A stretch of DNA of 64,000 nucleotides, taken from Psammoneis japonica (Eukaryota). The position numbers and the translations under genes were made by a program. Below are positions 3,775 to 34,029 of the stretch, piece after piece. The number at the start of each line of letters is the position of its first letter. The first letter of the stretch is position 1. The notes beneath the pieces were generated by a model. It was not told the origin of the DNA. It worked only from the letters and a program-made list of their open reading frames with translations, and did no database searches. Location: NCBI GenBank assembly GCA_008632985.1, contig QPGO01000118.1, positions 62,001-126,000 of the forward strand. The letters are read 5' to 3'.

Positions 3775-6687
3775 GATGCTCGTTCGGCCTCTTGAGGTGA
3801 TCTGAATGCAGGTGCCAAAACCAACTGAATGGGGAGTGGTGGGACTTCACTGGCGCAGCTGGCACTTTTGGCTGCCCAGCCGACTCTTGTTGCCAAAGCT
3901 CTTTGGAAGAATGAGAGGCAAGCAGCAAACTCGTGTGCCAGCTTGGTGCCATGTGTTCAGCGTTGGTGATGGGGAGAATGACCGACTTGCCATTGAGTCA
4001 TCAACTGGCAACGGGCCATCTGCACCCCCCCCTTGTTGGCCCACATGAGGCCAGCAACTTGCACTGCTTTGCTCACTCAGCCCCTCTTGTGGTGATCTGA
4101 ATCTGGGTGCCAGAGCCTGGCCAAATGACAGAGAAGAGTTGAGTGTCTGCAGTGTGGACCGAGGGGGCAGCAGCGCACTCCGCGGGATGCAGCAGAAAGA
4201 AGAATTCCAAGGTGGGAGACTGGTCATCATGTTGGCTGGTGCTTGTGAACTGGGGCGGTTGGTTGAAGATGCGGCATGTGGGATCCAAAAGAGGGTGGTG
4301 ACAGGGGCCAGCCGGTTGGGTGCCAGAGGGTCTTCTTCTTTCTTGTGGAAATGGATTTGGCGGGCAAGTCGGAAATCAATGTTGACTTGTTGGGGTGTGC
4401 AGCAGCATGGATCCAGGGGCCCCCCATTGCAGCAAATGTTTGGCCAGTTGAGTGCAGGGCACACTCGGTGGTTCTTGCCTGGATGATGGGGTTGCCCCTC
4501 CTCCTCTGGGTGCAATGATGCCAGTGCAGTGTTGGTGCAGCGTTGAGACTTGAAAGAAGACAACCTGGTCTGCGACATCTTGAAGCAGAGGGTTGATGGC
4601 CAGATTGATGCAAAATTGTCGCCATTTGTCCCAGCGGGTGTTGGAGGAGGAGGAGGCAGAAGGGGTGGTGCCATGGTGGGCAATGGTGCACTGCACAGCA
4701 CTGAGGTCACACAGGAGTGCAGTGCAGATGGCGGGGTCCAGAGTCACCAGGATGGAGTCTGTGGGGATGGTGAGTGTCAAAATGGCACAGAAAGGTGTGG
4801 CTGGACAATGACTGCAAGTGTCGTGAGGCATTGTCAGCAGCTGCTTCAAGCAGGCTCAGAAAGCAATCATCAAGGGAGAGGCAGCAGCGATGGCGGTGAT
4901 GCTGGCCCCGGTGGCGGAGGAGCTTGGAGGCTGCTTTCACTGTGGCAGTGGAGCCTTTGCATTGGCAGTGCTTGTTGGACAACCAGATGCTGATGCCACT
5001 GATGCTTGTCAGCGGCACACAAAACCAAAGCAAAAACAGATTTCACTTTTTTCATTCTCACCAAATTGTGGCCCAGCACTTTTGCAACCTTCATGATGCC
5101 AGCTCAATCTTTCAAACTGAGTTGCCACTTGTCAATTCTTTGTCATTGTTGTTCAACCTCCTGCAGAGCCAGGGAACCATGTCGCTCCACTTGACACATG
5201 TTTTTTTGTGAAAATCGACAGCACCACCACCGAGTTGTGACCAAGACCCACCGGCCCGTTTTGCGGTCGGCAGACACACATTTTTTCACACCACACCACA
5301 TTGACACCAACAGCTGCAATGATGTGATGATTTTGTTTTTGCCACTGGGACAGAATCACCATGACAGGGAAAGTTGCCAGTTTTGCACCACAGACTTCCG
5401 CACCAAATCCGCGCCACATCTGTTGTCCATCAGTGCTGTCAAATCTTTCCTCAAGTTGGAAGCATCCAAGCCATTGCTCGCTGAGAACAGCACTGCAGCA
5501 TGGAGTTGGCTTGGCTCACAAATTCAATGTCACTGGGACAGTGCTGCATGGGCAGGAGCGCTGCTGTGAGCCAACACAAATGGCTGGGTGCAATGATGGT
5601 GTTTGTTTGTTGGTGCCTCCCAAGTTTCTGGTGATTTCATTCCTTTTAGATGGCTGGCATGTTTGGAGCATTTTCCCCTGCCACCGCCAACAACGTCATT
5701 GAACAATCAACCATGGGATGAAATGAGTTCTGGCAAGTGAGTGTGCTGTCTTTCATGCTGTTTCTCTCTTCCAGCACTGCCGCATTTCTCACTTTTTTTG
5801 TCCAATTCATTTAATTGCTTCTTGCAGAGGTGGAATTTGTGCGTGCACCCAGCTCATTGCTTGCTGTCTCTGAATCACCATCTCATGCTCTGTGGCAAGT
5901 GCATCCAGTGTGTGCATTCTCTGCATCAACTCATTTTGTTTTTTCTCAACCTCTTTGTTTTGCAATGATGTCTGTTCCTTGTTCTGCAGAAAAATGATGC
6001 CCAGTTGGGTGGCAAAGAAGAGGGCACAGGGGTGCAGCACCATTGCTGTGACTGCTGCTGCTGGGGGTGTGGCCCCATTTGGGTGGTGACAAGAAGGTGT
6101 GCTGCCACTGCGACTGCCACAACTGCTGCTGTGGCTGTTTTTACTTGTGTCTCTGGTGGGGCAAAAACTGCTGTTGCTGTGACCACTGCGGCTGTGACTG
6201 CTGTGGACGGGGATTCCTTTGGTTGGTTGATGACAAGGGGACAAGGCGCAGCACCATGGTGGATGTCCCATGCACATTCTCAGTGTTGACTCTCTTTCTT
6301 GTTTTCTCAACCTGTTTGTTTTGCATTGACACTTGTCCCCGCAGCTGCTCCAACAGTCGGGTGACAAGAAGGGGACAGGGCATCACCGCGGCACTCCCAC
6401 AGTGAATGCTGCTGCAGCTGCAGCCATGGCTGTTGTTGCTTGCAATGCTGGTGGGGCAACAACTGCTGCCAACTGCTGCTGCTGTGACCACTGCTGTGCT
6501 GCTGCTGTGACAGTTGGTTGGCAAGAATGGGGCATGGTGTGATGCTGTGGTGGATGTCCCGTGCACGTTCTCTTTGTTGTTCATCAACATTTGCCTCTGC
6601 TGCTGCTGCTGCTGCTGCTGCAATTTCTGTGGTTGGGTGACAAGAAGGGGATGCAGCACCAGTTGGGCCATGAGAAAGGCACTTGGC

Positions 6688-6723
<36 letters not shown>

Positions 6724-9700
6724 GCTGCCACTTGGGACTGTGGTGGGGTGGCACATTTTCTGCCAAATTGTCAACATTGACATTTGTTGGTGGAAACACC
6801 CCACTCTCCACACCCATGGAACATTGCAAATGGGGCTTGTGCTGCACTCATGATGCTGACACCATCTGATGCCAAAGGTTTGCTTGATTGCTGCGACAAT
6901 GGATTGAGTCTGGACACCAAATTGGAGTGTGTCTCACAAATGACATGGTTTGTCCTGTGCAGGACCTGGTTTGCAATTGCCGTGCATCATTTTTGTCCAT
7001 TTGCTGTTGGATTTCTGCTGAGCATTGTGGCTGGGTGTCGTGCAGCCTCTGCTGGCTTGCTGCTCTCTGCTCCAGCTGGCAGTCAACAGGTGTTTGCTGC
7101 ATGGAATGAAAGGACAGCAGCTGAAATGGATCAAGCAACATCTTAACCTGCACACAGTGCTGCATGCAATGTCAGCCTGACTGTTTTTTCCAGATGGCAG
7201 CAATGGATGTTTTGGGATTCACTGCTGCTGCGGCAAGAGTCCTGCATTGACTGATCAGTCCACATCATCCTGCTTCTTCTTGTTTGACATTTTCTTGACT
7301 CTCCAAAGACATTTTCAAAGGCATCTCCAGTGCTCTTCTTTCTCCATTTTGGCCTGAACCCTGACAATGTCTTTGGCAAGCACACCCCCGCCCAGCACTG
7401 CAGGAAGAGAAGCACTGGGAACAGCAGGAAGAGTTGCTCAAATTCATGGTCTTTGCATCTCATGGAGCAAGCAATGGCGCCACCGCTTGGAAAGCCATTG
7501 CCAGATGACAGAGACTGGGAAGAATGTCTCATCTTCTTCTCTCTTGCCATCACTGCAAATGAAGACAATGGCCGCAGTTCATCAGCCACACATCCTCAGT
7601 TCCAAGGGGTTCACTCTGGTGGTGAGTTTTATGACATGTCTTGCCGGTGTCTCCAGCAGGAGCAACAAGCTTGCTGGGTGGATGGTGCATGATGCACAGG
7701 CCAGTGCCACTTGAGAAACTAAAATGGAGCATGTGGTGGTGGTCCAGATCATCATCATCACCATCAGCACACATTGGTTTGAGTTGATGCCTGCATGACA
7801 TGCACCCCAAATGCACTCAGCCTGCATTTGTTGAGTGGGTTCTTGGCCCAACTGTGGTGTCTTTGCACTCTTGATTTTGGAAGCTGCAAGCCTTGACTTG
7901 GGCAGCAGCAGCAGCCCCTTGTGCGTGATTCCTCCACACAAGAAGATGCCCAGCTGCACAAGGTGAGGAGGCACCAGCCAACCTGCAAAGATGACAAGGG
8001 AACCATCTGTGTGATGGGACTGATGCAAGCAGCACTCCATTGTCTTGGGATGGCTTTTGGTGGCTCATCCTGCAAGAAAGACAAGGGAGCCATCTGTGTG
8101 ACAGTGCAAGCACTCAGCAGTCTGGGGGCGGGCACAAGAGACTCTGTTGGGTCCAGGAGGAGGCAGCAACAACAGTGGTTGGGAAGGAAAAGCCTTGTCT
8201 TGGGCCAGTGCAGCCCCTTTTCTTTCTGATGTGATTGGCTTGCTTTGGTGACCCAGCCACCCCACTTGCAGAGGCAATGCAGGGAGCTTTCTGTGTGACA
8301 GCGCAAGTGCCCAGATGTCTTTTGCTGGCCATGGGTGATTCCATTGTGTCCCAAGAGAGCCAACAACAACCTTGGTTGGGGAGCAAAGGCTTGTCTTGTG
8401 TCAATGTGGCCCCTTTTCTTTTTGACATGACTGGGGGCTTCTTTGGCCCAGCCAACACACCTGTGCAGAGACCATGGAGTGAAGCAAAAACACATTCACT
8501 GTAGAAATGACAAAACACAGCTAGCACAAACACATTGCAAGCAACACACAGCCAATGCACTAGCATCTTAATGAGACAAATGAATGTTGCAGTTGTCAGA
8601 AATGTGCAATGTTGCAGAGCAGTCACAATTGCACCCTTGTCAAGAAGTTTCATTGACCATTGTTTCCCACTTGGAAGGTGGCATTGATTGTGAACGTGAA
8701 CTGAATCATTTCAAAACCATTGTGGTCACAATCTTGTCAAGACCAAACAAAGAATTAGAGTCATTTTCATTTGAGTGTCAAACCCCACTTGGAGTGTTGA
8801 AAAGATCATCAAAATTGCTTCATGCACAATTGATGAGCACTTGTTAAGAGCACAGGATTCTTGACAAGCAAGTGCAAGTTGTGAACAAGAGCCACAACAT
8901 TTTCCAGATGATGGCTCGTGAAAATGGCACTTGTTGTGCAAACAGTCCTGAGTCCATTTGAGGCCTTGATCAGCAGCCCATGCAGGAACAACTCAAAGTT
9001 GTGGGATGTGGAATGGTGTTTGGTGTCAGAAGTGCAGTGCTGACAGCACCATGACTGGCTGCATTGTGGCAGCTGGTGACTGTTGGCAGAAGTGGCACCA
9101 GCTTGTCAGTTCTTGGAAATTGTCCAGGATTGAGCAAAAGTTGGCGGCAAAACAGACTTGGTCATCCAATGTTGTGTGGAATGGTGCTTCTTGGAGCTTG
9201 GAAAACAACTCACATGAGTGGCACCAGATGCATGTGGCACAAACCATTGGCCAGGTTGATCTCAATGAGGTGGATTCAACCACAAGCCAGGTTGGCTGAA
9301 AGGATGCGTCACAGCAGCCAACCAAGTGTCCGGCCAAATTGCGTTAACTCTGCAAGTGCATTGGGATGTGTTGATGTGTTCATCATGCCGCAAAAGGTGC
9401 AGTCAACAATTGGGCATGGTCTGTGCCCATGTTGTGGCAGTGCTTTGATCAGGCAAAAATGCAGCCCTGGGATGTCCTTGTTGCATGGCAAGGTGGCACC
9501 ACCCAGAAACCTTTGTTCACCACATCTGCCATGTCTTTTGCAAGAACTCAATGTGTTTGCATGCAGACTTGTGTTGTCCCCTTGTGATGCTGCCTTCAAG
9601 CTCAGCAGCATTGGACCATGGATGATCAGCCACTGTGGCTGGCATGCCTTGGTGTTTGCAGCCTGTCACCATGCGGTGTGCTGTGTGTTGGGGTGCATGC

Positions 9701-9925
9701 TGGTCAGTGGTCCCCTGTTCCCAGTTTTGCCCTGCTGCTGTGCAGTTGCAACAAGCAACTGGGGCCTCTTGAGCAAAGGAGATTGGCATCACAAACACCA
9801 ACTCAGTCACCCAGTTTGTCAGCATGTGCTGATGCAGTGATGTCCTGACCCCACATGAAGTGGCAATGCTGCCTCTCTTTGACTCCACTTGCGGGGGTTG
9901 TGGATGCACAGGTCTGGTCTGTGCA
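3775..9925 (-). mobile_element. Degenerate DIRS/Ngaro-like tyrosine-recombinase retrotransposon relic (copy X1) with unassigned Gln-rich interior
   Basis: Minus-strand remnants in RT-RNaseH-YR order: RGQHKSACKHIEFL / RPCPIVDCTF / QFGRTL (~9700-9200), KGSTATVKAAS / ADNASR (~5000-4750), WDKWRQFC / GQTFAAMG / IDFRLARQI / FFFLLHPAEC (~4640-4140). Many frameshifts; TpA almost absent. Confidence 0.75.
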
Positions 9926-9929
9926 GAGT

Positions 9930-10537
9930 TGAATTGCACTGCAAACCATCTCTCTAAAAAGAATGTGTTGATTCAATTCAAGAACAACCCCAATCTTGAA
10001 CGCTTGTTGGCATGGGGTGCATGCATGATTTTCTCTCTGCACTCTGTTTTGTTTTCTTTGTCAAACTGCCACAAACACCGCCCTTTGGTCATGGCATGAC
10101 TTTTGTGTTTGGTGCTTTCCTCCACCGACTGACGACGATGACGAAACGTGTGATTGTTGGAATTCCCATCGAATCGCCTGGTGGCTGGATTAGGCCATGA
10201 CGGTGATGGCCTTGGTGTTGGGGATGATTCAAATGAAAACTGAGGGCTGCAACAAAACGACCATGACGTTGTTTGTAGGAATCGCCGCAGTGATCCATTG
10301 AGCTCGTTTGTGGGATTCATAAGTACGTCAGGACACTTGACGTGGCCTGTTGGCATTGTATTTGTTATGGCTACCCTTGCCGGCATTGTCGAGTTGGTGG
10401 CGTGTGCGTCGTTCCATTTGAGCGTGGGAGGTCATGTTTGGTATGATTTGTTTCTTCACATTGCCATGCTGGTGGCGCTCTTGCTGGCACCGTCTCCTGA
10501 AAATGGAACCAAGGAACCGAAACCGAAGGACGCGTAG
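9930..10537 (+). pseudogene. Membrane-protein gene copy 2 (5' half mutated, ~260-bp internal deletion)
   Basis: Aligns to 1900-2769; segment equivalent to ~2265-2525 is missing; 3' end nearly identical to copy 1. Confidence 0.85.
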
Positions 10538-10838
10538 CTTCGAATATATTCCAAAGTCATAACTGCTTGCACAGCCTCACATCTATTTTAATTTGCTATT
10601 CAGCACTATCCTCCTAAGCAGGCAATTCACTCTAGAATTCTGTGTCTGGCGGCTTGAGAGTGATAAATGATACTATTGTTTTTTAAGAATATACACAACT
10701 TTGTGGAATGCAAACATGTTGCATTTTCTTATCGCCCGTGGCTCGCCTTTACTCAAACAGAGCAGGACTCGAATGCCCAGCCCAGAGCAATCTCAATGAG
10801 AACAAGAGAGAACCTGGCAAGCGATCCGGGCTCGCAGA

Positions 10839-11321
10839 TTAGTTGATGGGCTGTTCGTTTCCATTGCCTTGCACATGGTGTGCTGGCCGTTGATGTCTCC
10901 TACGTCTCCTACGTCGTGCTCCTATAAGACGCATAAAGACCAAGATCCGATCTCCGTGCCGAATTCCGTACGAACGAACTAGGCGTTCTCCCACCAGCTG
11001 CTGTCCTCCGAAAAGCAGGCGCTGTTGATCAGCTGGAATACCATCAATATTCTGCATCGTTGCCATCAAATCATTTACCGTGTCGTTGTACCTGACAAAT
11101 GCTTGATATTTGCGATCTGTTGTGTTGCTGATCTTCACGTTGAAGCCCAACTGTGGGAGCCGCGCGCTCAGCTCTCTGTGTTCTTGTTCTACCTTCTTTC
11201 TGTTTTCTTGTTCTAGCTTCAGCTCTCTGTTTTCTTGTTCTAGCTTCTTGTTCTCCTCAAGGACCTCCAACATGGCTTTGTCGCGTGTGGCAGCGGCAAC
11301 AAAGCGGCCAAGATCTGTCAT
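10839..11321 (-). CDS. Coiled-coil + ubiquitin-like domain protein (copy 2)
   Basis: 483-nt CDS; I see only three substitutions relative to 3071-3553. Confidence 0.8.
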   Translation of the reverse strand: MTDLGRFVAAATRDKAMLEVLEENKKLEQENRELKLEQENRKKVEQEHRELSARLPQLGFNVKISNTTDRKYQAFVRYNDTVNDLMATMQNIDGIPADQQRLLFGGQQLVGERLVRSYGIRHGDRILVFMRLIGARRRRRRRHQRPAHHVQGNGNEQPIN

Positions 11322-11466
11322 GATTGCAACTCCTGTTCGACTTCTCTTGCGCGTCCAGTTCTTTTCTTGCGTTGCTGTATGGATGGATGCTAATGTTGTG
11401 TACCGTATTGTTCCTCGTGCGGCAAAGCGGCTGAAGTTCGGTGCGCGCACGCACGTGTGTCAGGCT

Positions 11467-12304: not shown

Positions 12305-14549
12305 TGAGGAGTCTATGCGTCGACCGTTCTTCGCGCGCGCGCTCGCACGCACCCGAAGGTCTCCTCATAGACTCTCGCGGAAGTAAGACGGACGATGTAC
12401 CAGGGTCGTATGTAGGCCGTTTGTTACGGTGCCGTTTTTCTGGACATGCCGCAAGCGCATCGTCTCATTGCTGTTATCGGCATGAACGACTCCCAAGGCT
12501 GTCTAGGGCTGGCACTGTAGAATGAATCTTTTGCAGCATTGGGACGTTTTGAGCACACCATGACAAAGCCCTGCAGTTGCACAACTGCTGCATGGCTCCT
12601 CATTCCATCATTCACAATCGGATGTGTTGACCCTTTTCTCTCGGCTCGATCGCGCTAGCCACACATCGAACCACGACCTGTGAACTGTCACGCCAGGTCA
12701 TTGAGCTGGCAGCAGTCCACCAGCAGTTGCCGCAGGAGGCCGAAAAGAGAAGGGAGGATGCAAGAAGTGAGAACATCCGTGACACAGGATTCAAGAGAGG
12801 CAACAAAATTGGAAACATCAATGCAAAAAACAGAAACATTCTCACCGGCAATTAACGCCAAGGAAGAGACACGACAGTGCCGCCGCTGAGCACTGAGAGG
12901 CGTGCCAAAGAATGCTGCTGAATCCCCACCAAGCCCATTGATCAGCCTGCGTTTTCGATCCACGCTGCGTCTCAAAGCAGGAGATCTTGCCAGAGGCGAA
13001 AACAAAAACTGCAATTGTTGAGTCACAGAAGCAAATTGTGAGCAAAATCACAACACCAACTTGCCAATTGGCCTTTGCACACATTCTTTTGTGTCTCATG
13101 TGTGTGTGTGCTTGTCGCTGCAACGGCATTTGTCTCATCCCATTGCTGGAGGCATTCACACTGTCGCGAACTGATGAAATCCTGCGCAAAGTGCAAGCCC
13201 CATTGAGTGAGTTTGAATGCCAACAATTAACAACACTGTCATGTGAGCTTGCCTCCTTGACTCAGTGTCACCAAATGAGCACAGCCAATGCACTCAAATC
13301 TGCCCAAGCGGCAAGAAATCGACACAACCGTCCAAAAATCTCCAAAAATGTCATGAAACAGTGACGCCCAACCAAAAATGAGACCCCAGACCATCTTTGC
13401 CTCAAATCTCAGAGCTGTGGTCAAACCACGCCTCATGCAGACACCAACAAACAACACCAAGGTGCTCCATGGACTGAGAACCTGCGTGACAACAAGGAAG
13501 AGCCCATTCCGTGAGTGAGCACATTTCTGGCAAAAAACACAAAGCCATTTGTTACAAACAACAGAAACAACGGTTGCGCCACAAGAAAGACAATGCCATT
13601 GCAAGCCAATGACGAAAATGCGCACAAATTTCCATGTCATAACTCACAGGGTGCAATGGAGCGGAGCATGCGACGACAATCAACGACACATGTCAGCACC
13701 TGCCGAAAAAGTGACGATTTTGCACTCAGTCAGTCTCGGGGATAAATCAATCAAATGTTTGCCAATTTTCTCTGTTCCAACACCATGGTGCGCTTCAACA
13801 GTGAGTGTCTGAACAACCACTGAATGGTGCAAGGCACAGCGGTCGATGCACCGATGAAATCGATCATCGTTGGAACGGCACATTTTCTGGCATGTTTTGT
13901 GTAGAAAGCTCTGCAGAGCATTTCGCAAAATCCAGGGAGGCATGGCAACAAATTTTGAGCCACCGTCCGTCCAGAAAACGCATCCGCAGCATGGCAAGTG
14001 CAGTCATGATGGCGGCATGGAAATCTGATTGGACAAATGACGTCAGCTAAGAACCTTGTTGTTCACAATGAGCAATGATGACATCATCCTCACCCCACCA
14101 TCTCCTGTCCACCCCGCCGCCCGCGCTGGCCGTGGCGATTTGCTGCGCCCCAACTCAAACTTCAAAAGAGAAACATTCACAAGCCCCAAGAGACTCAGCA
14201 AGACAACAACACATCATGACACACAAACAGCACAAACCACCCATGACAGCGGCAACTTTCGGACTGGCGAGCACAAAAATGACGCCATTGGAACCGCAGC
14301 ATTTTTGTCAGCACGTGTGTGTTGTTTCTCTTTTTGTTCAATGCAAGTGCGACCCTCTTGTGGGACAATTTCAGCAACTTTCAAGTGGAAAGTTTTGCAC
14401 CGTCCTTCTTGGGCCATTTGGTCCACCTGCTCTAAAATCATTTGACTCACAAATGACACCGTTCAATCCGCCATGTCTAAATTGCTCTGTGTGGCAGTTT
14501 CTGTGCACCCGGAGCCTTCGCACTTCAACCCACTTCCCTTGCTTGATGA

Positions 14550-16618
14550 TCAGGCAGCTTCCACCTTTTGCCTCTTTGATGGCTTCTGAACAACCATTGC
14601 TGCATCCTGCCCAAGACCTTCTTGAATGCTGGTCATGTCACGTCGTTCCTTCGCCACCAACTTCTTCCTTTTGGCCCGCTCATGCGCAAAGCACTGACAA
14701 CAGAAGGCAACATGTTCTTCCTTCAGACTGTTGACTGCCGCCACCTGCATCTCTCTGGGCAGTGAAGAGAACCGACCAATGGTTCGCAAGTCGAGCAGCA
14801 AAGACATGAGCTGTTGTTCGCTGCACTCGATCTCCCCGACTTCCACCAGCCTGTTGTTTGTGTTGTTGCCCAAGAATCGACGCTCGAATTCTGTTGTAGC
14901 CCACTCCAAACAAACCTGCCCAACAGCAGACAGGTTGCTCACTTTCACCTCTTGGCGCGGCAGCTTTGGACTCGTGTCGACTTGCTCGGGCACAACCATG
15001 GAAATTGTTTCGCCAGTCAACTGCTTGTAAGTCGTGGTCTTGATGATGCTTCCACACCCAGCAGCACGTAGCTTCTCATGCTGGGACATGGTTGTGAGCA
15101 GTTGACACGGATTGAGAACAGCCTCGAACTCTCGGAAATGCTGCCGCAACATGCTGTTGGTGCCGAGTGCACCCCTGTTGGCCATGTTGTAAAGTTCAAT
15201 CGCTCGTTGCATCCGAAGAGCCCAGCTGAGCAGCTGGAACTCTGCTGCAACCCGTGCACCATTCAAGTCCAGCTTTGGCTTCAAGGTTGCCACATTGTTG
15301 GTCTCCGCTAGATCCGTCAGCTTCGAAAAACGTTTTTTGCACCGGAAGTGCTTCGCGACATTCTTGGCATCATTCATCACTTCAACTCCTTCCGGGAATG
15401 GATTGACTGGCTTTTTGTCCTTAGAACGCACTGGGGCTCCAACTGCAGATGCCCCAACCTTGTCCCCATCATGCATGTCACAGCCCTCTGTGTCTTTAAT
15501 CTTGGGAAAGTCCCTGGAAACTCCAGTTGCGGCACGATCCGACACCATGGAGCTCAGCACATTGTTCAACTCCATTCCAGTGCGGTCACGAAAAGTGCCC
15601 CGAAACAGTTTTGCGACCGCTGGATCCGTGCTGTCTTTTGATCTTCTAAATCCCATGCAAACAACAAGATTTGCGCACCAACACGGATCAATGAATTGCA
15701 AACCAAATGATTGACACTTGTTGTGGTTTGCCAGCGTGACGCCATCATGAATCCCTTGCCCAAAATGGTTGCCATGACTCTGGGCCACTTTCAACTGAAG
15801 TGTGATTTGAAGGAATTGTTTGAAAACTTCAAACTCCGCTCTAACGTGTCCTCCGAGCTTGTGCCGGGTCATCAACGGGACATCGGGATTTGCAGCACGC
15901 ATCATCTCTTGGAAAAATTCGTCTTCAAAGGTTCGCCCAGATGTGAGTGGGTTTCCATGCACGCACCAGGCTCCCTGTGCTGACAGGTTTTTTTGTTTGC
16001 AGGTGAGCATGAACCCCAACTTTTGCTGCTTCTTGGGCTTCTGCGCATTCGAGTCAGACTTCTGGCAAGACTCGGTGGCAGACTTCTCCACTGAGCACTG
16101 CAGTTGATGATCCGCAAGCTCTTCCTAAAACAAAACAAGCAACAAATGCAAGTCATTGGCGAAAGACTCTTTGCTGACACATGCACCCAAGCATGCAACA
16201 AGAGGGAACTGACCTTTTTCTTTTCATCCCGAGCTCGCTTTTCATTGTTTTCAGGTGAGTCGACATGCCACTTTTGGATGTGATGCACGGCTTTGGCAGT
16301 GCCCCAATGATCCTTGCCTTTGGGTTTAACAAGTGTCATAAATGGTGACTCGCAACCTTCCACAGTGCAGATGTGAGTGCACTCTTTTGCCATTGGATGA
16401 GTCGCTTGCAACCTTTTGACAGTGTCCCACACCGTGGACTTGTTGGGCCGATGACCAGGGGTGTTGGCACGCGTCAAATGCATGGGGTCCGTCTTCCAGG
16501 GCTCCTCCTTGTCTTCGCGAGAAGCCTCTCTCCCACTTTCCTCGGATGCTTTCGTGGTGCCGAAAAATTCCGCATCTTCGTCGGTGCTGGCAATCATGGT
16601 GTTGTTGGCGGCACTCAT
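14550..16618 (-). pseudogene. hAT-family transposase, join(16618..16214,16124..14550)
   Basis: BED-like finger (STVWDTV..HICTVEGC..HIQKWH), GIHDGVT, VSDRAA, GCDMH (CxxH), LNGARVAA; in-frame 89-nt GT-AG intron; C-terminus decayed. Confidence 0.75.
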
Positions 16619-17116
16619 GGTGTCTCAGATTGACACCATGGTGCATGAACCAAAGTGCAAAACCTTGGAGAAAGAAAATGCAAAATGTTGTGAGAAGCTG
16701 GCGCATGAGACAATCATCGACAACAACAAAACAACAATTGTTGAAACATTTGTTGGAACTTGCGCATTGAACATTTTGTCATGAACCAACACAATGGTTG
16801 AGCAATTGCTGAACAAATGCGTGCATGATTGCTGAACAAATGCACGACACAATTGCTGAACAAACATGCCACAATTGTTCAGCAATGCAACACGATCCAT
16901 CCCCCACATTCCAAAATGATGCTGCAGGCCAATCCACAACCGTTTGTTCAGTCTGCCGACGAGTGTTGTTGTCATCACTGATGGTGCCGCTGCCGCGGCA
17001 CTTGCCGCAACGATGTCTGAGCGAGCAGTGAGCAGGTGAGAGGTGCGAGCTGTTTGCCATCTCTTGACACAATGGCTCAAATTTTGATTGCAATCGACTG
17101 CAACCACCGACTGCGA

Positions 17117-19938: not shown

Positions 19939-20055
19939 GAGCATCAAGGTGGAACGGGAAGTTTTCGACCTGGCGGTCGCTTCTCGGGACGCGGTCGACA
20001 CTGACCCAATGAGCTTGAAGAGCTGTCGTCCGAGTGTGTCGCTCCTGATTCTTTT

Positions 20056-23000
20056 GTGTTTGATGATTGTGCTGATTGCGTTGATGATTGTTGTGCACAT
20101 GCTGCTGATTTATTTGATGATGATGATTTCGGAAATTGTGCCATGAATGACGAAGACGATGTGGGACTTGAGTGCGCTGCACCAACCCCAAAAACAAAAC
20201 CAATTGGACCATTGAATGTGGTCCCTACAACCTCATTCGCGGCGCGATTCATTCAAGACAAGGAAAGCAAGCACGTGATGCGGGTGTCACTTGATTCCGG
20301 TGGAACCCATTCAATGATTCATGCTCGGGTGTTGCCGGTTGGAGCGGCTCCAGCATTGGAAGAGACAGGACCAATTCGTGCAAAGTTTGGGACAACAGCA
20401 GGAGAATTCGAATCAACTCGTCATGTTCGACTGCAAGACTTGGTGCTCCCTGAATTCGACAAGACCAAACATGTTGACGGCATGCATGCGCATGTGTTTG
20501 ACTCACCCTGCCAATGTGACATGATCCTTGGACAGGACTTCTTGGCGAGAGCGGGTGTCACATTGGATTTTGAACACGGAATTGTCAAGTGGCTCGGTTC
20601 AAGCATTGCGATGAAGCCAAGGAATCAGCGGACTGGCATCCAGCAATGGCTCGATGATTTGACTGATGAGCTGGCCAATGATGATGACGTGTGGGATGGC
20701 CACATCCTCGATGCAAAGCATGAGGAGACGTCCCCTTCTGAAGCAGCTTCAGCTCAGAAGCATCTCACTGCCGAACAGCAAGAGAAATTGCGCCTCGCAT
20801 TGGAAAAACACACTGCTCTTTTTGATGGCACCCTTGGCAAGCATGCTGACGAAAAAGTTCACCTTGACATTGATCCCAACGCCGTTCCGCACCATTCTCG
20901 AGCATGTGCAGTGCCGCACAATGATCTCGAGACTTTCAAGCAAGAATTGGATCATTTGGTGGCTCTTGGCATTCTTGAAGAAGCCGGAACTTCGGAATGG
21001 GCTGCAGGTGCCTTTGTTCGGCCGAAGAAAGATGGTCGAGTGCGGTGGCTCAGCGATTTTCGGGAACTCAACAAAGCCCTCAAGCGCAAGGTTTGTCCCT
21101 GACGCATTCCAGGTCTAGGTGGGACCTCGCACTGCTGAACTGTGACATCGACAGTTTTTTGAATCACGTCGCATGTCGCGCACGTAGATTTCTACGTGAT
21201 TTTTTTGATGTTTTGTGTCATTTTACGGTGCACTTGTTGAGCGATCCGTCCAACAACTTTTTGACATTTTTTGTTACAGTGCGATTCTACAATGTCTTAA
21301 GAATCGCGTAGGGCAGGTGCATTTGCAAAAACGTCGAGTGGCAAGAGGCACAATTGCACCACAAACTTGGCCGTTTATTTGATGTTGAAGACAAACATGT
21401 CCATCAATTAAATTCTCGTACTACGGAGCTCGCACGTAGAATTCTACGGGCCCAATGTCACACGGAGTCCCACCTGGGGCTGGAACGCGTCCCCTTGCCG
21501 ATCATTCAAGATGTGTTGCAAAAGAGAGCCGGGTGCAAATTTCTTACAAAGTTGGATCTCTCAATGATGTGCTGTGCGTTTGAACTGGACGACGATTCCA
21601 AAGATCTGACGACAATCGTGACACCCTTTGGAAAGTGTCGATGCTGCTGTCCAGCAATGGGTTTGAAGCCGGCTCTGGATGTTGCGCAACACTTGATTGA
21701 GAAAACTGTGCATGACTTGGACGTTGACGCACATGTTGATGATCTCGCTCAATTTGATGACAATTTTGATGTTCACCTTGCTCGTCTCGACAAACTCCTG
21801 CAACGTTTGGAAGAAGCTGGATTTAATGTGAACCCTTTGAAATGTGAATGGTGTGTGCAGGAAACGGATTTCCTTGGGCATTGGCCAACTCCAACTGGAA
21901 TTCGTCCGTGGAAGAAGAAAGTGGAAGCCATTCTGCGAACGCAACCTCCGGAAAATGTCAAGCAGCTTCGTTCATTTCTTGGTGCTGTGACATGCTGTCA
22001 CAACATGTGGCCTCGGCATTCTCACTTGTTGAAACCCTTGACAGATCTCACAGGCAAAGGCTCGTGGACGTGGACAGCAGATTGTCAGACGGCGTTCGAA
22101 GAGATGAAAGCAGCACTGGCGGCCAAAACGTTGATGGCGCATCCGAATCACAACAAACCCTTCCACATCTGTGCTGATGCCAGTGATTGCCAAATGGGCG
22201 CAGTGATTGCACAAGATGGAAAACCCATTGCATGCTGGTCTTGAAAGCCAAACGCGGCGCAACAAAACTGCTCGACGATCGAAAAAGAACTCTTGGCCAT
22301 TGTCATGTGCTTTCACGAATTCCGAACGATGCTCCTTGGTGGCGACTTGCATGCATTCACCGACCACAAGAACCTTGCCTTTCGCACCTTGAATTCACAA
22401 CGTGTGCTCCGTTGGCACCTCTTTCTGGAAGACTTTGCCCCTCAATTCCATTGTGTCGAAGGCCGCTTGAATGTCTTGGCTGATTGTTTTTCTTGTTTGC
22501 CTCACATGGATCCTCCCTCTGAAGGGAAGAGCTTGGCTCCGGGTGAAGGAACTGTTGTTGATTTTGCTCCGCTCGATTCGAAGTTGGTGCCGAGTGAGGA
22601 ACCATCCAAAGTCGAGGATTTCCGCGATGAGGACTTGGAGCTCGGCGCATGCTGATTCAAGTGTTGTCGCAACATTGAAAATGAAGGCCACTCACACTTC
22701 TTCTCTTTCTTTGTTGATGAGCCGGAACTGTTCGACTCCTTTTTGAATTGCCCTGCGATGCAGGAGATGCAAAATCCAGCGGCGTTACAACGGATTCAAG
22801 AGTGCCAGTTCGAGGACCAACAATTGAACCAGATGCGCATTGCTCACCCTGATCGTTTCCTTGTGGAACATGTGAACAATCGACCACTTGTGTGTCATCG
22901 CGTGCGACCAAATGATCCTCCAGGACAGTGGAAAATCTGTTTGCCGACTGCGCTCATGCCCGACATTTTATGGTGGCATCATCTCGTCCTTGGCCATGCC

Positions 23001-23942
23001 GGAAGCCAGCGCATGCGTGAAACAATCCAGGCTCATTGTTGTCACCCTGGGTTGCGTCGCATGTGTGATGAACATTCTTGTGCTGATTGCCAACGTGACA
23101 AAACTTTGGGTCCTGGCTGTGGAGAGCTGCCCGAATGAGAAGCTCCATTGACTCCCTGGTCGGAAGTGGCGGTTGACCTCATTGGCCCGTGGAAAATCAA
23201 AGTGCCGAATGGAGAGATTGAGTTTCAGGCATTGACCTGTGTTGATCCTGTCTCCAATCTTGTTGAACTGGTGAGAATTGAGAACAAAGCTGCTCAACAT
23301 GTTGCCAACCAATTCGAAAACTGCTGGCTTGCACGCTGTCCCAGACCAAATTGATGCATCCACGACAACGGCGGCGAGTTCACTGGGTGTGAGTTTCAGA
23401 TGCCATTGCAACGAGCCGGAATTGATGATGTGCCGACCACTTCACACAACCCTCAAGCCAGTGCCATTTGTGAACAAATGCACCAGACTGTCGGCAATGC
23501 ATTGCGCACGCTCATTGCTTCCAATCCACCTCAAAACCTTCAGGATGCAGCCAGCCTCGTGGACGATGCTTTGGCAACTGCAATGTGTGCAACCCGCTGT
23601 GCTGTTTCCCATTCCTTGCAGATTTCACCAGGTGCTGTGGTGTTCGGACGTGACATGATCTTGGACATCCCAGTGCTGGCGGATTTGTTGACGATTCAAG
23701 GCCATCGCCAGACGCTGATCAACGACAACTTGCGACGAGCCAATGCCAAGAGAAGATCCTGCGATTGTCAAGTGGGTGATCAAGTTCCAATCAAGTGCAC
23801 TGAGCCATCCAGACTCGAGCCTCATGCTCATGGTCCTCACCCCATTGTTCAAGTGCATGTAAATGGCACACTCTCGGTTCGTCGAGCTCCTCATGTGGTT
23901 GAGTGCCTCAACACTCGGCGCCTGATTCCTTTTCGCGGTTGA
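20056..23942 (+). pseudogene. Gypsy pol (protease, RT, RNase H, integrase), interrupted by a MITE and several stops
   Basis: LDSGGT, KKDGRVRWLSDFRELNK, HVDD (YxDD position), DASDCQMGAVI, EKELL, VAVDLIGPW, HDNGGEF, NPQASAICE, HGPHPI (GPY position). Confidence 0.92.
21101..21491. mobile_element. 391-bp MITE inserted in RT, 4-bp TSD CCCT
   Basis: 25-bp imperfect TIRs GACGC(A/G)TTCCAG....AGGTGGGAC; removing it with one CCCT restores ...RKVCP-LPIIQD. Confidence 0.92.
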
Positions 23943-24065
23943 TCAGGGGGGTTTCTTCCCAACACCTGGGTTTCCTCCTGCTGTCATCTTCACTTTTGGT
24001 TTTGGTCCTTGGTTTTTGGCCCTTTGCATGATCCTCCAGTTCTTTTGGATCATGGAAGGGAAGAG

Positions 24066-24236
24066 TGCAGCAACTCACTCGCACGCTTCTGACATGTGGT
24101 GTCAATTTTGGACATTAGACCAACGCAGCCGTTTGAGAGAGGCTCGCCAGCGTTCGCTGACGCTCAGGCTCCCCTCTCTTCGGTCTGCTCACTTCTTTGT
24201 TTTGACATCAGTTTCAGCTTGAGCTTGCATGCCACA
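24066..24236 (+). repeat. 3' LTR (171 bp)
   Basis: Direct repeat of 18391-18559 preceded by a polypurine tract. Confidence 0.9.
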
Positions 24237-27207: not shown

Positions 27208-27320
27208 TCCATTTCGCTCGCAAATCGATCATGTGCCCAAAGAATGATCAAGCATAGACCAATGCCAACAATGCTGTCTGCACTGTGATGGACAAGCTGA
27301 TAATTTCAAATGAGCCGAAA

Positions 27321-30300
27321 GATGCTCGTTCGGCCTCTTGAGGTGATCTGAATGCAGGTGCCAAAACCAACTGAATGGGGAGTGGTGGGACTTCACTGGC
27401 GCAGCTGGTCCCCCCCAGTCCCACCCAACAAGCTGAAGCTCTGCATGGCCAGTGGGAGGGAGAGGTGGGAGCGCTTTTGGCCATCCAGCCAACTCTTGTT
27501 TCCAAAGCTCTTTGGAAGAATGAGAGGCAAGCAGCAAACTCATGTGCCAGCTTGGTGCCATGCGTTCAATGTTGGTGATGGGGAGAATGACCGACCTGCC
27601 ATTGAGTCATCAGCTGGCAACGGATCATCTGCACCCCCCCTTTTTTTGGCCCACATGAGGCCAGTGACTTGCACTGCTTTGCTCATTTGGCCTCTTGTGG
27701 TGATCTGAATCTGGGTGCCAGAACCTGGCTGAAGAATGATGGAGAAGAGTTGAGTGTCTGCAGTGCGCACCGAGGGGGCAGCAGTGCACTCTGTGGGATG
27801 CAGCAGAAAGAAGAATTCCAAGGTGGGTGACTGGCCATCATGTTGGCTGGTGCTTGCAAACCAGGTGGTTGGTTGAAGATGCAGCACACAGGATCCAAAA
27901 GAGGATGGTGACAGGGACCAGCCAGTTGGGCACCGCCGGAGGGTCTTCTTCTTTCTTGTGGAAATGTGTTTGGCGGGCAAGTCAGAAATCCATGTTGACT
28001 TGTTGGGGTGTGCAGCATGGATCTGGGCCCCCCATTGTTGCAGCAAACATTTGGCCAATTGAGTGCAGGGCACACTTGGCGGTTCTTGCCTGGACGATGA
28101 GGTTGCCCCTCTGCTGGGTGCAATGATGCCTGTGCAGTGTTGGTGCAGCATTGAGACCTGAAAGAAGACAACCGGGTCTTCGACATCTTGAAGTGGAGGG
28201 TTGATGGCCAGATTGATGCAAAATTTTCACCAGTTTGTCCCAGCAGGTGCAGCAGGAGGAGGAGGCAGAAGGGGTGATGCCATGGGCAATGGCGCACTGC
28301 ACAGCACTCTGAGGTCGCACAGGAGTGCAGTGCAGATGACGGGGTCCAGAGCCACCAGGATGGAGCCTGTGGATGGTGAGTGTCAAAATGGCACAGAAAG
28401 GTGTGGTTGGACAATGACTGCAAGCGTCATGAGGCATTGTCAGCAGCTGCTAAAAGCAGGCTCAGAAAGCAATCATCAAGGGAGAGGCAGCAGTGGTGGC
28501 GGTGATGCTGGCCCCGGTGGCGGAGGAGCTTGGAGGCTGCTTTTGCTGTGGCAGTGGAGCCTTTGCATTGGCAGTGCTTGTTGGACAACCAGATGCTGAT
28601 GCCACTGACGCTTGTCAGTGGCACACAGAACCAAAGCAAAAACAGATTTCACTTTTTTTGTTCTCGCCAAATTGTGGCCCAGCACTTTTCCAACCTTCAT
28701 GATGCCAGCTCAATCTTTCAAACTGAGTTGCCACTTGTCAATTCTTTGTCATTGTTGTTCAACCTCTTTCAGAGCCAGGAAACCATGTCACTCCATTTGA
28801 CATGTGTTTCTTGTGAGAATCAACAGCACCTTCACTGAGTTGTGACTGAGATCCACCCAGTCATTGCGCGAGTCCCATTTGACTCTTGTTTTGTGACAAG
28901 TGCAATGTGGGTCAGCATTGTTGTGACCAGCCATGATGGGGCCCCTGGGGTTTTTGCAGGTGGCTGAATGGCCGGCGATCATCTGCAACATGTTTTGGTG
29001 CTTGTGTCAAGAACGAAACGTGTTGATGAACAAAATTGTTGCATGCATGCCATCTCTGTCCACCAGTCTTCAATGTGCTTGCTTGTCAATTGTGCACTCT
29101 TGCAAACGTTCATTCTTCATCCACAAACAATCTGATTGTGAAACTTGTCAACAAACAAAATCATTGCAAATGTGCTGCTGCAACTCTGTCCATCCATTTT
29201 CAATTTGCACAGTTGTCAATTGTGCATCTTGCAAATGTCAAGTAAAAAACAATTTGACCATTTTTTCCCTTTTTAAGTTGTTGATGCCTGTGTGGCCCGT
29301 TTTGCGGTTGGCAGACACACATTTTTTCACACCACACCACACACAACATCGACACCAACAGCTGCAATGATGTGATGATTTTGTCTTTGCCATTGGGACA
29401 GAATCACCATGGCAGGGAGAGTTGCCAGTTTTGCACCACGGACTTCTGCACCAAATCCGCGCCACATCTGTTGTCCATCAGTGCCATCAAATCTTTCCTC
29501 CCTGCCCCAAGTGTGCCACGCACAGCACACACACATGGCAAGTTGGAAGTGTCCAAGTCATTGCTTGCTGAGAACAGCACTGCAGCGTGGAGTTGGCTCC
29601 GTTCACAAATTTAATGTTGCCTGGACAATGCTGCATGGGCAGGAGTGCTGCTGTGAGTTAACAGAAATGCAATGTGCTGAGTGCAATGATGGTGTTTGTT
29701 TGTTGGTGCCTCCCAAGTTTCTGGTGATTTCATTCCTTTTAGATGGCTGGCGTGTTTGGAGCATTTTTCCCTGCCGCCACTGACAATGTCAATGAACGAT
29801 CAACCATGGGATGAAACAAGTTCTGGCGAGTGAGTGTGCTGTCTTTCAAGCTGTTTCTCTCTTTCAGCACTGCTGCATTTGTCACTTTTTGTCCAACCCA
29901 TTTATTTGCTTCTTGCAGAGGTAGAATTTGTGCACACACCCAGCTCATTGCTTGCTGTCACTGAATCGCCTTCTCATGCTCCGTGGCAAGTGCATCCAGC
30001 ATGCATTCTCTGCATTGACTCATTTTGTTTTTTCTCAACCTCTTTGTTTTGCAATGATGTCTGTTCCCAGTTCTGCAGAAAAATGATGCACAATTGGGTG
30101 ACAAAGAAGAGAGCACAGGGGTGCAGCGCCATTGCTGTGACTGCTGCTGCTGGGAGCGCGGCACCATTTGGGTGACAAGAAAGGATGAGCTGCCACTGTG
30201 ACTGCCACAATTGCTGCTGTGTGACTGTTTTTATTTGCAACTCTGGTGGGGCGAGAACTGCTGCTGCTGTGACCTCTGCTGCTGCAATTGCTGTGGAAGG

Positions 30301-33300
30301 GGATTCCTTTGGTTGGTTGACAACAATGGGACAAGGTGCAGTGCCATGGTGGATGTCCCATGCACATTCTCAGTGCAGACTCTCTTTCTTTGTTTCCTCA
30401 ACCTGCTTGTTTTGCATTGACATTTGTCCCTGCGGCTGTTCCAACAATGGGGTGACAAGAAGGGGACAGGGCATCACTGCAGCACTCTCACTGTGAATGC
30501 TGCTGCAACTGCAGCCATGGCTGTTGTTGCTTGCGACTCTGGTGGGGCAACAACTGCCACTGACTGCTGCTGCTGTGACCACTGCTGCTGCTGTGACAGT
30601 TGGTTGGCAAGAATGGGACATGGTGTGATGCCACGGTGGATGTCCCATGCACGTTCTCTTTGTTGTTCATCAACATTTGCCTCTGCTGCTGCTGCTGCAA
30701 TTTCTGTGGTTGGGCAACAAGAAGGGGATGCAGTGCCAGTTGGGCCATGAGAAAGGCACTTGGCACTGCTGCTGCTGCTGCTGCTGCTGCTGGAACTGTC
30801 ACTTGGGACTGTGGTGGGGTGGCACATTTTCCACCAAATTGTCAACATTGACATTTGTTGGCGGAAACACCCCACTCTCCACCCACGGAACATTCAAGGT
30901 GCCAAACAGGGCATGCGCTGCACTCATGATGCTGACACCATTTGATGCCAAAGGTTGGCTCAATTGCTGCGACAATGGATTGAGTCTGGACACCAAATTG
31001 CAGTGTGTCTTACAAATGACATGGTTTGTCCTGTGCAGGACCTGGTTTGCAATTGCCATCCATCATTTTTGTCCATTTGCTGTTGGATTTCTGCTGAGCA
31101 CTGTGGCTGGGTGACATGCAGCCTCTGCTGGCTCACTGCTCTCTGCTCCAGCTGGCAGCCCCTAAAATGGATCAAGCAACATCTTAATCTGCACACAGTG
31201 CTGCACACAATGTCAGCCTGACTGTTTTTTGCAGATGGCAGCAATGGATGTTTTCCCACCATGGCAAGAGTCCTGCATTGACCAGTTGGTCCACATCATC
31301 CTGCTTCTTCTTGTTTGACATTTTCTTGACTCTCCAAAGACATTTTCAAAGGCATCTCCAGTGCTCTTCTTTCTCCATTTTGACCTGAACCCTGACAATG
31401 ACTTTGGCAAGCACACCCCCGCCCAGCACTGCAGGAAGAGAAGCACTGGGAACAGCAGGGAGAGTTGCTCAGATTTAAACTTGCCAAGGCATGGTCTTTG
31501 CATCTCACAAAGAAAGCAATGGTGCCACTGCTTGGAAAGCCATTGCCAGATGACAGAGACTGGGAAGAATGTCTCATCTTCTTCCCTCTTGCCATCGCCA
31601 CAAATGAGGACAATGGCCGCAGTTCATCAGCCACACATCCTCAGTTCCAAGGGGTTCACTCTGGTGGTGAGTTTTGTGACATGTCTTGCTGGTGTCTCCA
31701 GCAGGAGCAACAAGCTTGCTGGGTGGATGGTGCATGATGCATGGGCCAGTGCCACTTGAAAAACTAAAATGGAGCATGTGGTGGTGGTCCAGATCATCAT
31801 CATCACACCATCAGCACACATTGGTTTGAGTTGCTGCCTGCACAACACGCACCCCGAATGCACTTAGCCTGCATTTGTTGAGTGGCTTCTTGACCCAACT
31901 GCGGTGTCTTTGCACTCTTGATTTTGGAAGCTGCAAGCCTTGTCTTGGGCAGCAGCAGCAGCCCCTTGCACATGATTCCTCCACACAAGAAGATGCCCAG
32001 CTGCGCACAAGGTGAGGAGGCAGTGCCCACCAGCCAACCTGCAAAAACAACAAGGGAACCATCTGTGTGATGATGCAAGCACTCCATTGTCTTGGGATGG
32101 CTTTTGGTGGCTCAACCTGCAAGAAAGACAAGGGAGCCATCTGTGTGACAGTGCAAGCACTCCGTTGTCTTGGGATGGCTTTTGGTGGCTCAACCTGCAA
32201 GCAGGACAAGGGAGCCATCTCTGTGACAGTGCAAGCACTCAGTTGTCTGGGGATGGGCACAAGAGGCTCTGTTGGGTCCAGGAGGAGGCAGCAACAACAG
32301 TGGACTTTTGCCGATGCACAGCCCCTTTTCTTTCTGATGTGATTGGCTTGCTTTGGTGACCCAGCCACCCCACTTGCAGAGGCAAGGCAGGGAGCTTTCT
32401 GTGTGACAGCACAAGTGCCCGGATGTCTTTTGCTGGCCATGGGTGATTCCATTGTGTCCCAGGAGAGCCAACACCAACCTTGGTCGGGGAGCAAAGGCTT
32501 GTCTTGTGTCAATGATGTGGCCCCTTTTCTTTTTGACATGACTGGGGGTGGGCTTCTTTGGTCCAGCCAACACACCTGTGCAGAGACCATGGAGTGAAGC
32601 AAAAACACATTCACTGCAGAAATGACAAAACACAGAGCTGGCACAATCACATTGCAAGCAACACACAGCCAATGTGCGAGCATCTTAATGAGACAAATGA
32701 ATGTTGCAGTTGTCAGAAATGCACAATGTTGCAGAGCAGCTGCAATTGCATCCTTGTCAAGAAGTTTCATTGATCATCATTTCCCACTTGGAAGGTGGCA
32801 TTGATTGTGAACATGAACTGAATCATTTCAAAACCATTGTGGTCACAATCTTGTCAAGATCAAACAAAGAATTAGAGTCATTTTCATTTGAGTGTCAAGT
32901 CCCACTTGGAGTGTTGAAATGATCATCAAAATTGCTTCATGCACAATTGATGAGCACTTGTTAAGAACACAGGATTCTTAACAAGCAAGTGCAAGTTCTG
33001 AACAAGAGCCACAACATTTTCTAGATGATGGCTCATGAAAATGGCATTTGCTGTGCAATTGGTCCTGAGTCCATTTGAGGCCTTGATCAGGAATGCGGCC
33101 CATGTGGGAACACCTCAAAGTTGTGTGATGTGGGATGGTGTTTGGTGTCAGAAGTGCAGTGCTGACAGCACCATGACTGGCTGCATTGTGGCAGCTGGTG
33201 ACCATTGGCAGAAGTGGCGCCAGCTTGTCAGTTCTTGGAAATTGTCCAGGATTGAGCAAAAGTTGGTGGCAAAACAGACTTGGTCATCCAATGTTGTTTG

Positions 33301-34025
33301 GAATGGTGCAACTCACATGAGCGGCACCAGATGCATGTGGCACAAACCATTGGCCAGGTTGATCTCAATGAGGTGGATTCAACCACAAGCCAGGTTGGCT
33401 GAAAGGATGCGTCACAGCAGCCAACCAAGTGTCCGGCCAAATTGCATTGACTCTGCAAGTGCATTGGGATGTGTTGATGTGTTCATCATGCCGCAAAAAG
33501 TGCAGTCAACAATTGGGCATGGTCTGTGCCCATGTTGTGGTGGTGCTTTGATCAGGCAAAAATGCAGCCCTGGGATGTCCTTGTTGCATGGCAAGGTGGC
33601 ACCACCCAGAAACCTTTGTTCACCACATCTGCCATGTCTTTTGCAAGAACTCAATGTGTTTGCATGCAGACTTGTGTGCCCCCCTTGTGATGCTGCCTTC
33701 AAGCTCAGCAGCATTGGACCACGGATGATCAGCCACTGTGGCTGGCATGCCTTGGTGTTTGCAGCCAGTCAGTGTGCGGTGTGCCGTGTGTTGGGGTGCA
33801 TGCTGGTCAGTGGCCCCCAATTCCCAGTTTGCCCCTGCCGCTGTGCAGTTGCAACAAGCAATTGGGGCCTCTTCAGCAAAGCAGATTGGCATCACAAACA
33901 ACTCAGTCACCCAGTTTGCAAGCATGTGCTGATGCGGCGATGTCCTGACCCCACATGAAGTGGCAATGCTGCCTCTCTTTGATTCCACTTGCGGGGGTTG
34001 TGGATGCACAGGTCTGGTCTGTGCA
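27321..34025 (-). mobile_element. DIRS/Ngaro-like relic, copy X2
   Basis: Colinear with 3775-9925 (RGAHKSACKHIEFL, AESMQFGRTL, FFFLLHPTEC); extra segments at ~27406-27475, ~28858-29290 and ~32150-32230. Confidence 0.75.
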
Positions 34026-34029
34026 GAGT

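Follow-up and report, generated by a model that had tools for sequence, protein, structure and literature searches.

Hypermutation specific to TpA is already known from one 2026 preprint on one alga, the chlorarachniophyte B. natans, where mutation-accumulation lines gained 231 new mutations within two viral inserts, of which 230 were A>G or T>C, all at TpA (bioRxiv 10.64898/2026.01.13.699255). The main text of the preprint also describes a long-term footprint, TpA-depleted and enriched in CpA and TpG, which includes reverse-transcriptase and DDE genes, reports de novo events at ~1e-7 per site per generation in some lineages, and proposes an ADAT2 homologue as a candidate, by homology only; flanking context does not figure in that main text, where the words 'context', 'trinucleotide' and 'flanking' have 0 occurrences (bioRxiv 10.64898/2026.01.13.699255). 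In fungal repeat-induced point mutation (RIP), C>T changes turn CpA into TpA in duplicated sequence. Here, we analyse a 64-kb stretch of nuclear DNA (the window, meaning the whole stretch) from a host that is probably a diatom, in which five blocks are depleted of TpA. We consider it likely that these are transposon and repeat DNA hypermutated in place, nearly to completion, by a process that changes the A:T pair of TpA to G:C at rates graded by the flanking bases. No report of TpA hypermutation in diatoms was found in the literature searched, and the hierarchy of flanking bases is new.

TpA-specific loss graded by the flanking bases

The five TA-depleted blocks have sharp edges (Table 1); they were called by a TA observed/expected ratio (O/E) < 0.2 in 400-bp windows, then trimmed to the last flanking TA clusters. 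Three of them are saturated: over 18,403 bp in total they retain 42 TAs, with an O/E of 0.04 for TA, 0.18 for CG, 1.79 for TG and 1.91 for CA. The block at 12853-24955 is moderately mutated (TA O/E 0.08, CG O/E 0.77), and TG/CA O/E lies at 1.5-1.9 over the saturated and moderate blocks. Outside the blocks, where the neighbouring genes are spared, TA O/E is 0.58 and CG 0.99, and the whole window stands at 0.33 for TA and ~1.45 for TG/CA. AA O/E is 1.18 in unmutated, 1.24 in saturated and 1.30 in moderately mutated DNA, and the other dinucleotides outside the pyrimidine-purine (YpR) steps remain near their unmutated values.

The TA sites that survive are a biased set. A sequence-only reading of the window had proposed that they are mostly YTAR and had listed 16 examples; each of the 16 is indeed a TA in TTAA, TTAG, CTAA or CTAG, at most 2 nt from where it had been placed, and the proposal extends to the saturated blocks as a whole, in which 31 of the 42 survivors are YTAR, 6 RTAR, 5 YTAY and none RTAY (YTAR counts by block in Table 1). 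YTAR makes up 202 of 1196 TAs (16.9%; p=7e-16) in unmutated window DNA, 23.9% if the flanks of every YpR step within these blocks serve as baseline (p=1.3e-11), and 1300 of 6063 TAs (21.4%; p=6e-13) in 31 related unmutated gypsy loci from metagenomes, whose YTAR share ranges from 9 to 35% per locus and whose TA O/E is 0.48-0.98, none being TA-depleted. The second of these baselines is an internal control, unaffected by TA>TG/CA and CG>TG/CA, and predicts 22.5% RTAY where none is left (p=2e-5). Nine survivors are common by descent to the paralogous copies 1 and 2 of the saturated repeat; when these are counted once, YTAR still accounts for 24 of 33 (p=4e-10). The moderate block, taken without its 392-bp insert, represents an earlier stage, with the trend in the same direction but weaker (YTAR 24/57, RTAY 2/57). 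Tabulation of the NTAN classes in the blocks against the unmutated window and the related gypsy loci gives unequal depletion with YTAR in excess, and the density of YTAR is itself lowered ~4- to 10-fold. As had been supposed, survival favours sites where neither strand reads TAY; RTAY, where both do, is lost first, and the mixed classes lie in between, as expected if the two strands contribute additively.

We described these counts by an additive model in which each strand contributes its own rate of loss, fixed by the base 3' of that strand's A (position +1), and the two rates add up for a TA step; this summation would explain why the leftovers are YTAR. Four rates fit much better than a single rate (chi2=155, 3 degrees of freedom), and the Akaike information criterion falls from 225 or 178 with one rate to 120 or 97 with separate rates for R and Y, and to 76 or 82 with four rates. 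Over the three baselines, the fitted +1 rates, in units of saturated-block exposure, are 3.4-3.6 for T, 2.1-2.6 for C, 1.2-1.5 for G and 0.12-0.88 for A; the order T>C>G>A is stable, and only the value for A depends strongly on the baseline. Summarised in two classes, TAY and TAR differ ~3-fold. The mutated motif proposed from the sequence, 5'-TAY-3', is thus a fair first approximation but not an exclusive one, because TAR is mutated too, more slowly, and the +1 effect is graded. An A at +2 also protects: survivors are enriched for A at +2 (47.5% vs 26.3%) and at +3. Sites that resist mutation tend to be rich in T 5' of the TA and in A 3' of it, TTAA being the extreme case. Adding a -2 term to the rate model brought no significant gain (p=0.06); on survival data, a model with -2 alone is mathematically indistinguishable from the +1 model, and only product data separate the two.

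Under the mechanism that we propose, the A:T pair of a TpA step would become G:C, so that TA would turn into TG or CA according to the strand. On each strand the rate would depend on the base that follows the adenine (T >= C > G > A), and A at +2 would protect further. R-TA-Y, fast on both strands, would vanish first, Y-TA-Y and R-TA-R would be intermediate, and Y-TA-R, chiefly TTAA, would be the longest-lived.

An A:T to G:C change in integrated DNA

Before and after can be compared directly at 1914-2264, an unmutated paralogue of 9944-10294 and 34047-34378, two segments at the margin of the mutated domains. In an alignment judged by eye, the differences include CTAT>CTGT, TTAT>TTGT (twice), CTAC>CTGC, GTAC>GCAC and GTAG>GCAG; several CG>TG changes are also present, and one CTAA is retained in all three sequences. 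Likewise, among 40 variants listed of 1864, other genomic copies carry TA in 13 cases where the window has TG or CA. Differences between copies in the contigs of one public run are mostly transitions, with 303-394 per transition type vs 40-59 per transversion type.

For the coding part of the Ty3/gypsy element, we aligned the window with 120 unmutated gypsy polyproteins (<=65% identity) and scored the 543 positions conserved in >=60% of >=30 homologues. Of the 63 single-transition replacements at these positions, 36 fall at TA and 17 at CpG, which leaves 10 elsewhere. None of the 22 conserved Tyr residues remains: 17 have become Cys (TGY) and 5 His (CAY), in columns where the homologues rarely have Cys or His. 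Tyr codons that follow a pyrimidine gave Cys 10 times and His 0 times (given also as 0-1), and those that follow a purine gave Cys 7 times and His 5 times. In the moderately mutated second element (12853..18390), conserved Tyr became Cys in four cases and His in two, all after a purine, and one TTAC Tyr codon survives; both elements combined give [[10,0],[11,7]] (Fisher p=0.027). Since the Tyr products show the opposite of what a -2 rule predicts, the +1 (T-A-Y) rule is favoured and the -2 rule rejected.

Other codons of the gypsy element, and the tetramers, add to this picture. At 50 conserved Lys/Asn positions, no Lys>Glu or Asn>Asp replacement was seen; and first-base A>G was found in 8 of 9 Ile/Met and Thr codons preceded by T. 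At four conserved positions Leu CTA has become CCA, a change that a TAY motif taken as exclusive would not allow. Gains of the TAA-strand product amount to 2.0-3.0 per kb vs 5.3-7.7 per kb for the other-strand product, lower in 6/6 comparisons. Long (GCT)n / (CTG)n runs at 6590-6720 in copy 1 inflate the counts of CTGC and GCAG tetramers. The suggestion that the target is A in TAC or TAT stands in that the A:T pair beside the 3' pyrimidine changes, as the Tyr codons show; the thymine of RTA on the opposite strand fits equally. One of the 120 gypsy homologues, protein P0150 of a public protein set, is itself hypermutated, with 0.8% Tyr and Cys or His in 15 of 20 conserved Tyr columns; a metagenome scan for its DNA did not find the contig.

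The process acts on integrated DNA, because the two long terminal repeats (LTRs) of the gypsy element, identical at insertion, now differ mainly at YpR steps: 13 of their 16 differences lie there, including five CA<->TG double differences and three TG<->CG. The same TTAG is retained in both LTRs. Copies 1 and 2 of the saturated repeat, with 87-90% identity by BLAST and 93% across aligned columns (7% differ), show 59-60 CA<->TG double differences, 95 sites with CG in one copy only and 15 with TA in one only. Both strands are hit, and paralogues carry independent TG and CA outcomes. The flanks of 59 of the double differences show no R..Y excess (14/11/11/8 among 44 with matching flanks), a comparison that tells little because many of these are probably CpG-derived. 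On the + strand, TG outnumbers CA at 3714-10190 (852/674), 27302-34403 (913/755) and 19969-23936 (432/320), an asymmetry that could possibly stem from codon composition, transcription or replication direction.

Repetition alone is not the trigger: neither duplicated ubiquitin-family genes 97.5% identical to each other nor the high-copy 392-bp insert has been mutated, and a low-copy stretch at ~2x unique depth has. Decay of CpG is likewise independent of the TpA process and strong only in the saturated, older blocks: CG O/E is 0.03-0.3 per kb in the saturated blocks, where CpG is nearly erased, whereas the gypsy block has lost TA yet keeps most of its CpG (0.77), so that the two decays can be told apart by time or by target. 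Diatom DNMT4 enzymes have been described as related to fungal RID (PMC9998398).

Composition of the window and its host

Coordinates are collected in Table 1. The window is eukaryotic nuclear DNA; its open reading frames (ORFs) are long and intron-poor and include a kinesin motor, an MFS/nodulin-like protein, MYND fingers, TLDc, PP2C and a methyltransferase. All named relatives of the PP2C ORF, whose best hit stands at 82%, are diatoms (Fistulifera, Fragilaria, Thalassiosira, Cyclophora and others), as are those of the gypsy polyprotein, which makes a diatom the probable host. The MYND-finger ORFs at 39512-40612 and 41005-42519 share a 70% identical segment (40170-40598 / 42086-42514) and are neighbouring paralogues that are not hypermutated. 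A single N lies at 37006, and the window is otherwise complete.

Table 1. Features of the 64-kb window.
Feature	Coordinates	Strand	Remarks
Saturated repeat copy 1	3714..10190	.	14 TAs remain, 11 YTAR; without Pfam domain
Saturated repeat copy 2, paralogue of copy 1	27302..34403	.	21 TAs remain, 16 YTAR
Third saturated block, sequence unrelated to copies 1 and 2	57999..62822	.	7 TAs remain, 4 YTAR
Small TA-depleted block	54943..56125	.	3 TAs remain, 2 YTAR
Moderately mutated block	12853-24955		Holds second element and gypsy element
Moderately mutated second element	12853..18390	-	524-aa ORF 14553-16124 (-); homologue alignment spans 14415-16591
Ty3/gypsy LTR retrotransposon	18391..24229	+	TA depleted, CG mostly retained; polyprotein frame 19969-21099 + 21492-23936
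Gypsy 5' LTR	18391..18554	+	TG...CA ends; 164 bp
Gypsy 3' LTR	24066..24229	+	16/164 positions unlike 5' LTR
High-copy insert (392 bp) within gypsy element	21100..21491	.	TA density normal (14 TAs)
Unmutated paralogue of mutated 9944-10294 and 34047-34378	1914..2264	+	Permits before/after comparison
Unmutated flank with ubiquitin-family ORF	10293..11420	.	Marks right limit of hypermutated domain

In full, repeat copy 1 extends over 3661-11331 and copy 2 over 27205-35435. The saturated repeat is always followed by the ubiquitin-family segment, of which the copy at 10293-11420 is duplicated at 2525-3645 (97.5%) and 34377-35435 (83.6%); the corresponding ORFs at 3071-3685 and 10839-11459 (both -) are 97.5% identical. 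On the left, the edge of hypermutation lies no more than ~50 bp from the end of the repeat, and on the right it lies ~250-330 bp beyond 9944, within the part paralogous to 1914-2264. No credible domain emerged when 93 stop-to-stop ORFs of the saturated and flanking blocks were searched against Pfam, and the repeats remain unclassified. Many stop-to-stop ORFs in the saturated and other blocks are long, in all frames and up to 298 aa, with no family match; such spurious ORFs arise because TAA and TAG are gone and only TGA is left as a stop. Annotation should allow for them, and for the loss of Tyr to Cys or His in proteins from such blocks.

The reading frame of the gypsy element is intact over its two parts, which the 392-bp insert splits, and other genomic copies of the element lack the insert, with 21093 joined to 21495. 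The insert reaches a depth of ~1e5 in the public run, and perhaps evades hypermutation as a young or short element. From the same run, 7553 contigs map to 5400-25399 at 80% likeness, so most repeat families in that interval are high-copy. Six unmutated homologues of the second element returned no Pfam domain; language-model similarity (0.94-0.95) hints at a hAT-like transposase, which we take as a lead only.

Alternatives and known systems

Several points weigh against an in-place, flank-graded A:T to G:C hypermutation as we read it. The evidence from products is modest, with a Fisher p of 0.077 at a 50% conservation threshold; among the 40 variants listed of 1864, mixed-class products split into five consistent and five inconsistent, the latter including ATAA>ATGA twice, and TTAC>TCAC was observed three times. 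The + strand excess of TG in copies 1 and 2 and in the gypsy ORF means that a strand bias could add to the excess of Cys, and the CA<->TG double differences could also stem from CpG. Absolute rate ratios hang on the baseline, TAA being 4- to 25-fold below TAT, because the true ancestral sequence is lacking. The exact matches to public-run contigs described below are not independent, as the run may be the source sample of the assembly, and these data identify no enzyme.

The modified base might instead be the thymine in 5'-R-T-A-3', for example oxidised to a uracil derivative that pairs with G, giving T>C. By sequence alone this would look the same as A>G in T-A-Y of the other strand, all counts fit both, and thymine-modifying systems exist in other protists; nothing in the data speaks positively for it, the authors of the B. 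natans study favour adenine deamination (by homology only), and we regard it as unlikely. Alternatively, transposon RNA could have been edited in the manner of ADAR or fungal TAD enzymes and the edits fixed by reverse transcription, so that copies were born mutated. A>G with a 5' U is described as typical of ADARs and of fungal mRNA editing (PMC10661471; PMC11156358), and sense-strand TG exceeds CA in the gypsy ORF; however, an LTR pair differing mainly at YpR steps is impossible before integration, both strands are hit, and a probable DNA transposon and non-coding repeats are also affected. Moreover, the ADAR hot spot is given as UAG (PMC10661471), whereas TAG is hit less than TAY here, and the target described in B. 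natans is a silent single-copy insert of a DNA virus (bioRxiv 10.64898/2026.01.13.699255). We therefore hold RNA editing to be very improbable.

An origin in error-prone repair synthesis of the Pol-eta kind at WA motifs, set off by lesions in methylated repeats, would accord with the co-occurrence of CpG decay in the saturated blocks, and A>G at TA is one Pol-eta hot spot. Comparison with the Pol-eta spectrum, which the sequence-only reading had suggested, speaks against it: the changes do not follow WA, as AA is undepleted (O/E 1.24-1.30 in the blocks vs 1.18 outside) and A>G in AA context makes up 3 of the 63 single-transition replacements vs 36 at TA, transversions are few, and the gypsy block lost TA with CG O/E still at 0.77, making such repair a most unlikely source. 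The excess of YTAR might be secondary, arising from new TAs created out of TG or CA by ordinary transitions, or from the original composition of the elements. TG and CA are abundant in the blocks, so new TAs must arise, and some TAs present in one copy only may be such gains; against this, the TG/CA steps of the same blocks have Y..R flanks in only 23.6%, the unmutated gypsy relatives reach only 21.4% YTAR (9-35% per locus), and nine survivors are common to two copies that differ at 7% of aligned sites, which leaves this account scarcely credible. Base modifications can give systematic, transition-like errors in some long-read assemblies, and the coincidence of TA and CG loss in some blocks would suit a sequencing or base-calling artefact at modified bases in methylated repeats. 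This too has very little probability, given that public-run contigs (platform unrecorded, k-mer depth ~30), possibly from the same sample, match 14547-15099, 15072-15823 and 15983-17145 with 0 differences, that the changes make sense codon by codon and are not the same in the paralogues or in the two LTRs, and that a second hypermutated gypsy protein, P0150, exists in a public protein set.

Returning to hypermutation in place, its agent might be a sequence-selective polynucleotide adenine deaminase, converting A to inosine that is read as G and aimed at silenced foreign DNA, an identification that we offer tentatively. The A34 targeted by TadA/ADAT follows U33, and of the proposed link to TadA this part stands, in that a T lies 5' of the target A; of the anticodon context U-A-C-G, nothing else agrees but a C that is tolerated at +1. 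The remainder is unsupported: TAT is hit at least as readily as TAC (rates of 3.4-3.6, with TAC at or below them at 2.1-2.6), and TACG is not singled out, the TAC strands that survive in the moderate block (n=26) having G at +2 in 5 cases, A in 18 and T in 0 relative to a G baseline of 25%, a small sample confounded by CpG decay. A review table lists 5'ACG for TadA-type enzymes, with C at +1 as a good context (PMC10661471), and amphioxus ADAT2, the one natural ADAT2 shown to deaminate DNA, is reported to act on adenine at GAA and on cytosine at TCG (PMC10354150). The 'YAC' preference attributed to TadA-derived editors was not confirmed in the literature opened, where 'YAC' in PMC10953296 is a yeast artificial chromosome. 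With ADAR, the process shares A>G with a preferred 5' U; unlike ADAR, with its UAG hot spot (PMC10661471), G at +1 is worse here than T or C, the 5' T is near absolute, and integrated DNA is the substrate. The flank hierarchy is thus a first constraint on the agent, one that argues against ADAR-like, Pol-eta-like and RIP-like activities and fits TadA/ADAT loosely.

In the manner of fungal RIP, transitions accumulate here in place, in repeated or mobile DNA that is thereby inactivated, at a specific dinucleotide and within sharp domains. The direction is opposite, TpA being destroyed and CpA gained, so that an A:T>G:C defence at TpA is the mirror image of RIP; unlike in RIP, duplication alone is no trigger, and a low-copy element (~2x unique depth) is mutated.

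The likeness to B. natans is closer: A:T>G:C changes only at TpA, giving TpG or CpA, in foreign or mobile DNA with sharp bounds, and in place on the chromosome. The host here is a probable diatom, a stramenopile, instead of a chlorarachniophyte; the process hits an LTR retrotransposon, a probable DNA transposon and unclassified repeats; and depletion is near total, with TA O/E of 0.02-0.1 vs a Rho of 0.45 given for the nucleocytoplasmic large DNA virus insert of B. natans. The window thereby supplies a second case, far more saturated and from another algal lineage, of a genome defence first described very recently, and saturation in a probable diatom suggests that the process is widespread in the stramenopile-alveolate-rhizarian lineages. 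It is possible, though we would not yet call it probable, that diatoms and chlorarachniophytes share an old genome defence in which a sequence-selective adenine deaminase acting on DNA removes TpA from transposons and viruses that invade; if so, the preference for T-A followed by T>C>G>>A, with a protective A at +2, would be a fingerprint for identifying the enzyme, which might be a natural DNA adenine editor. De novo events have been observed in B. natans, whereas the process here is known from its footprint alone, and the flank hierarchy of that footprint predicts directly how the 231 de novo mutations of B. natans should be distributed over flanking contexts.

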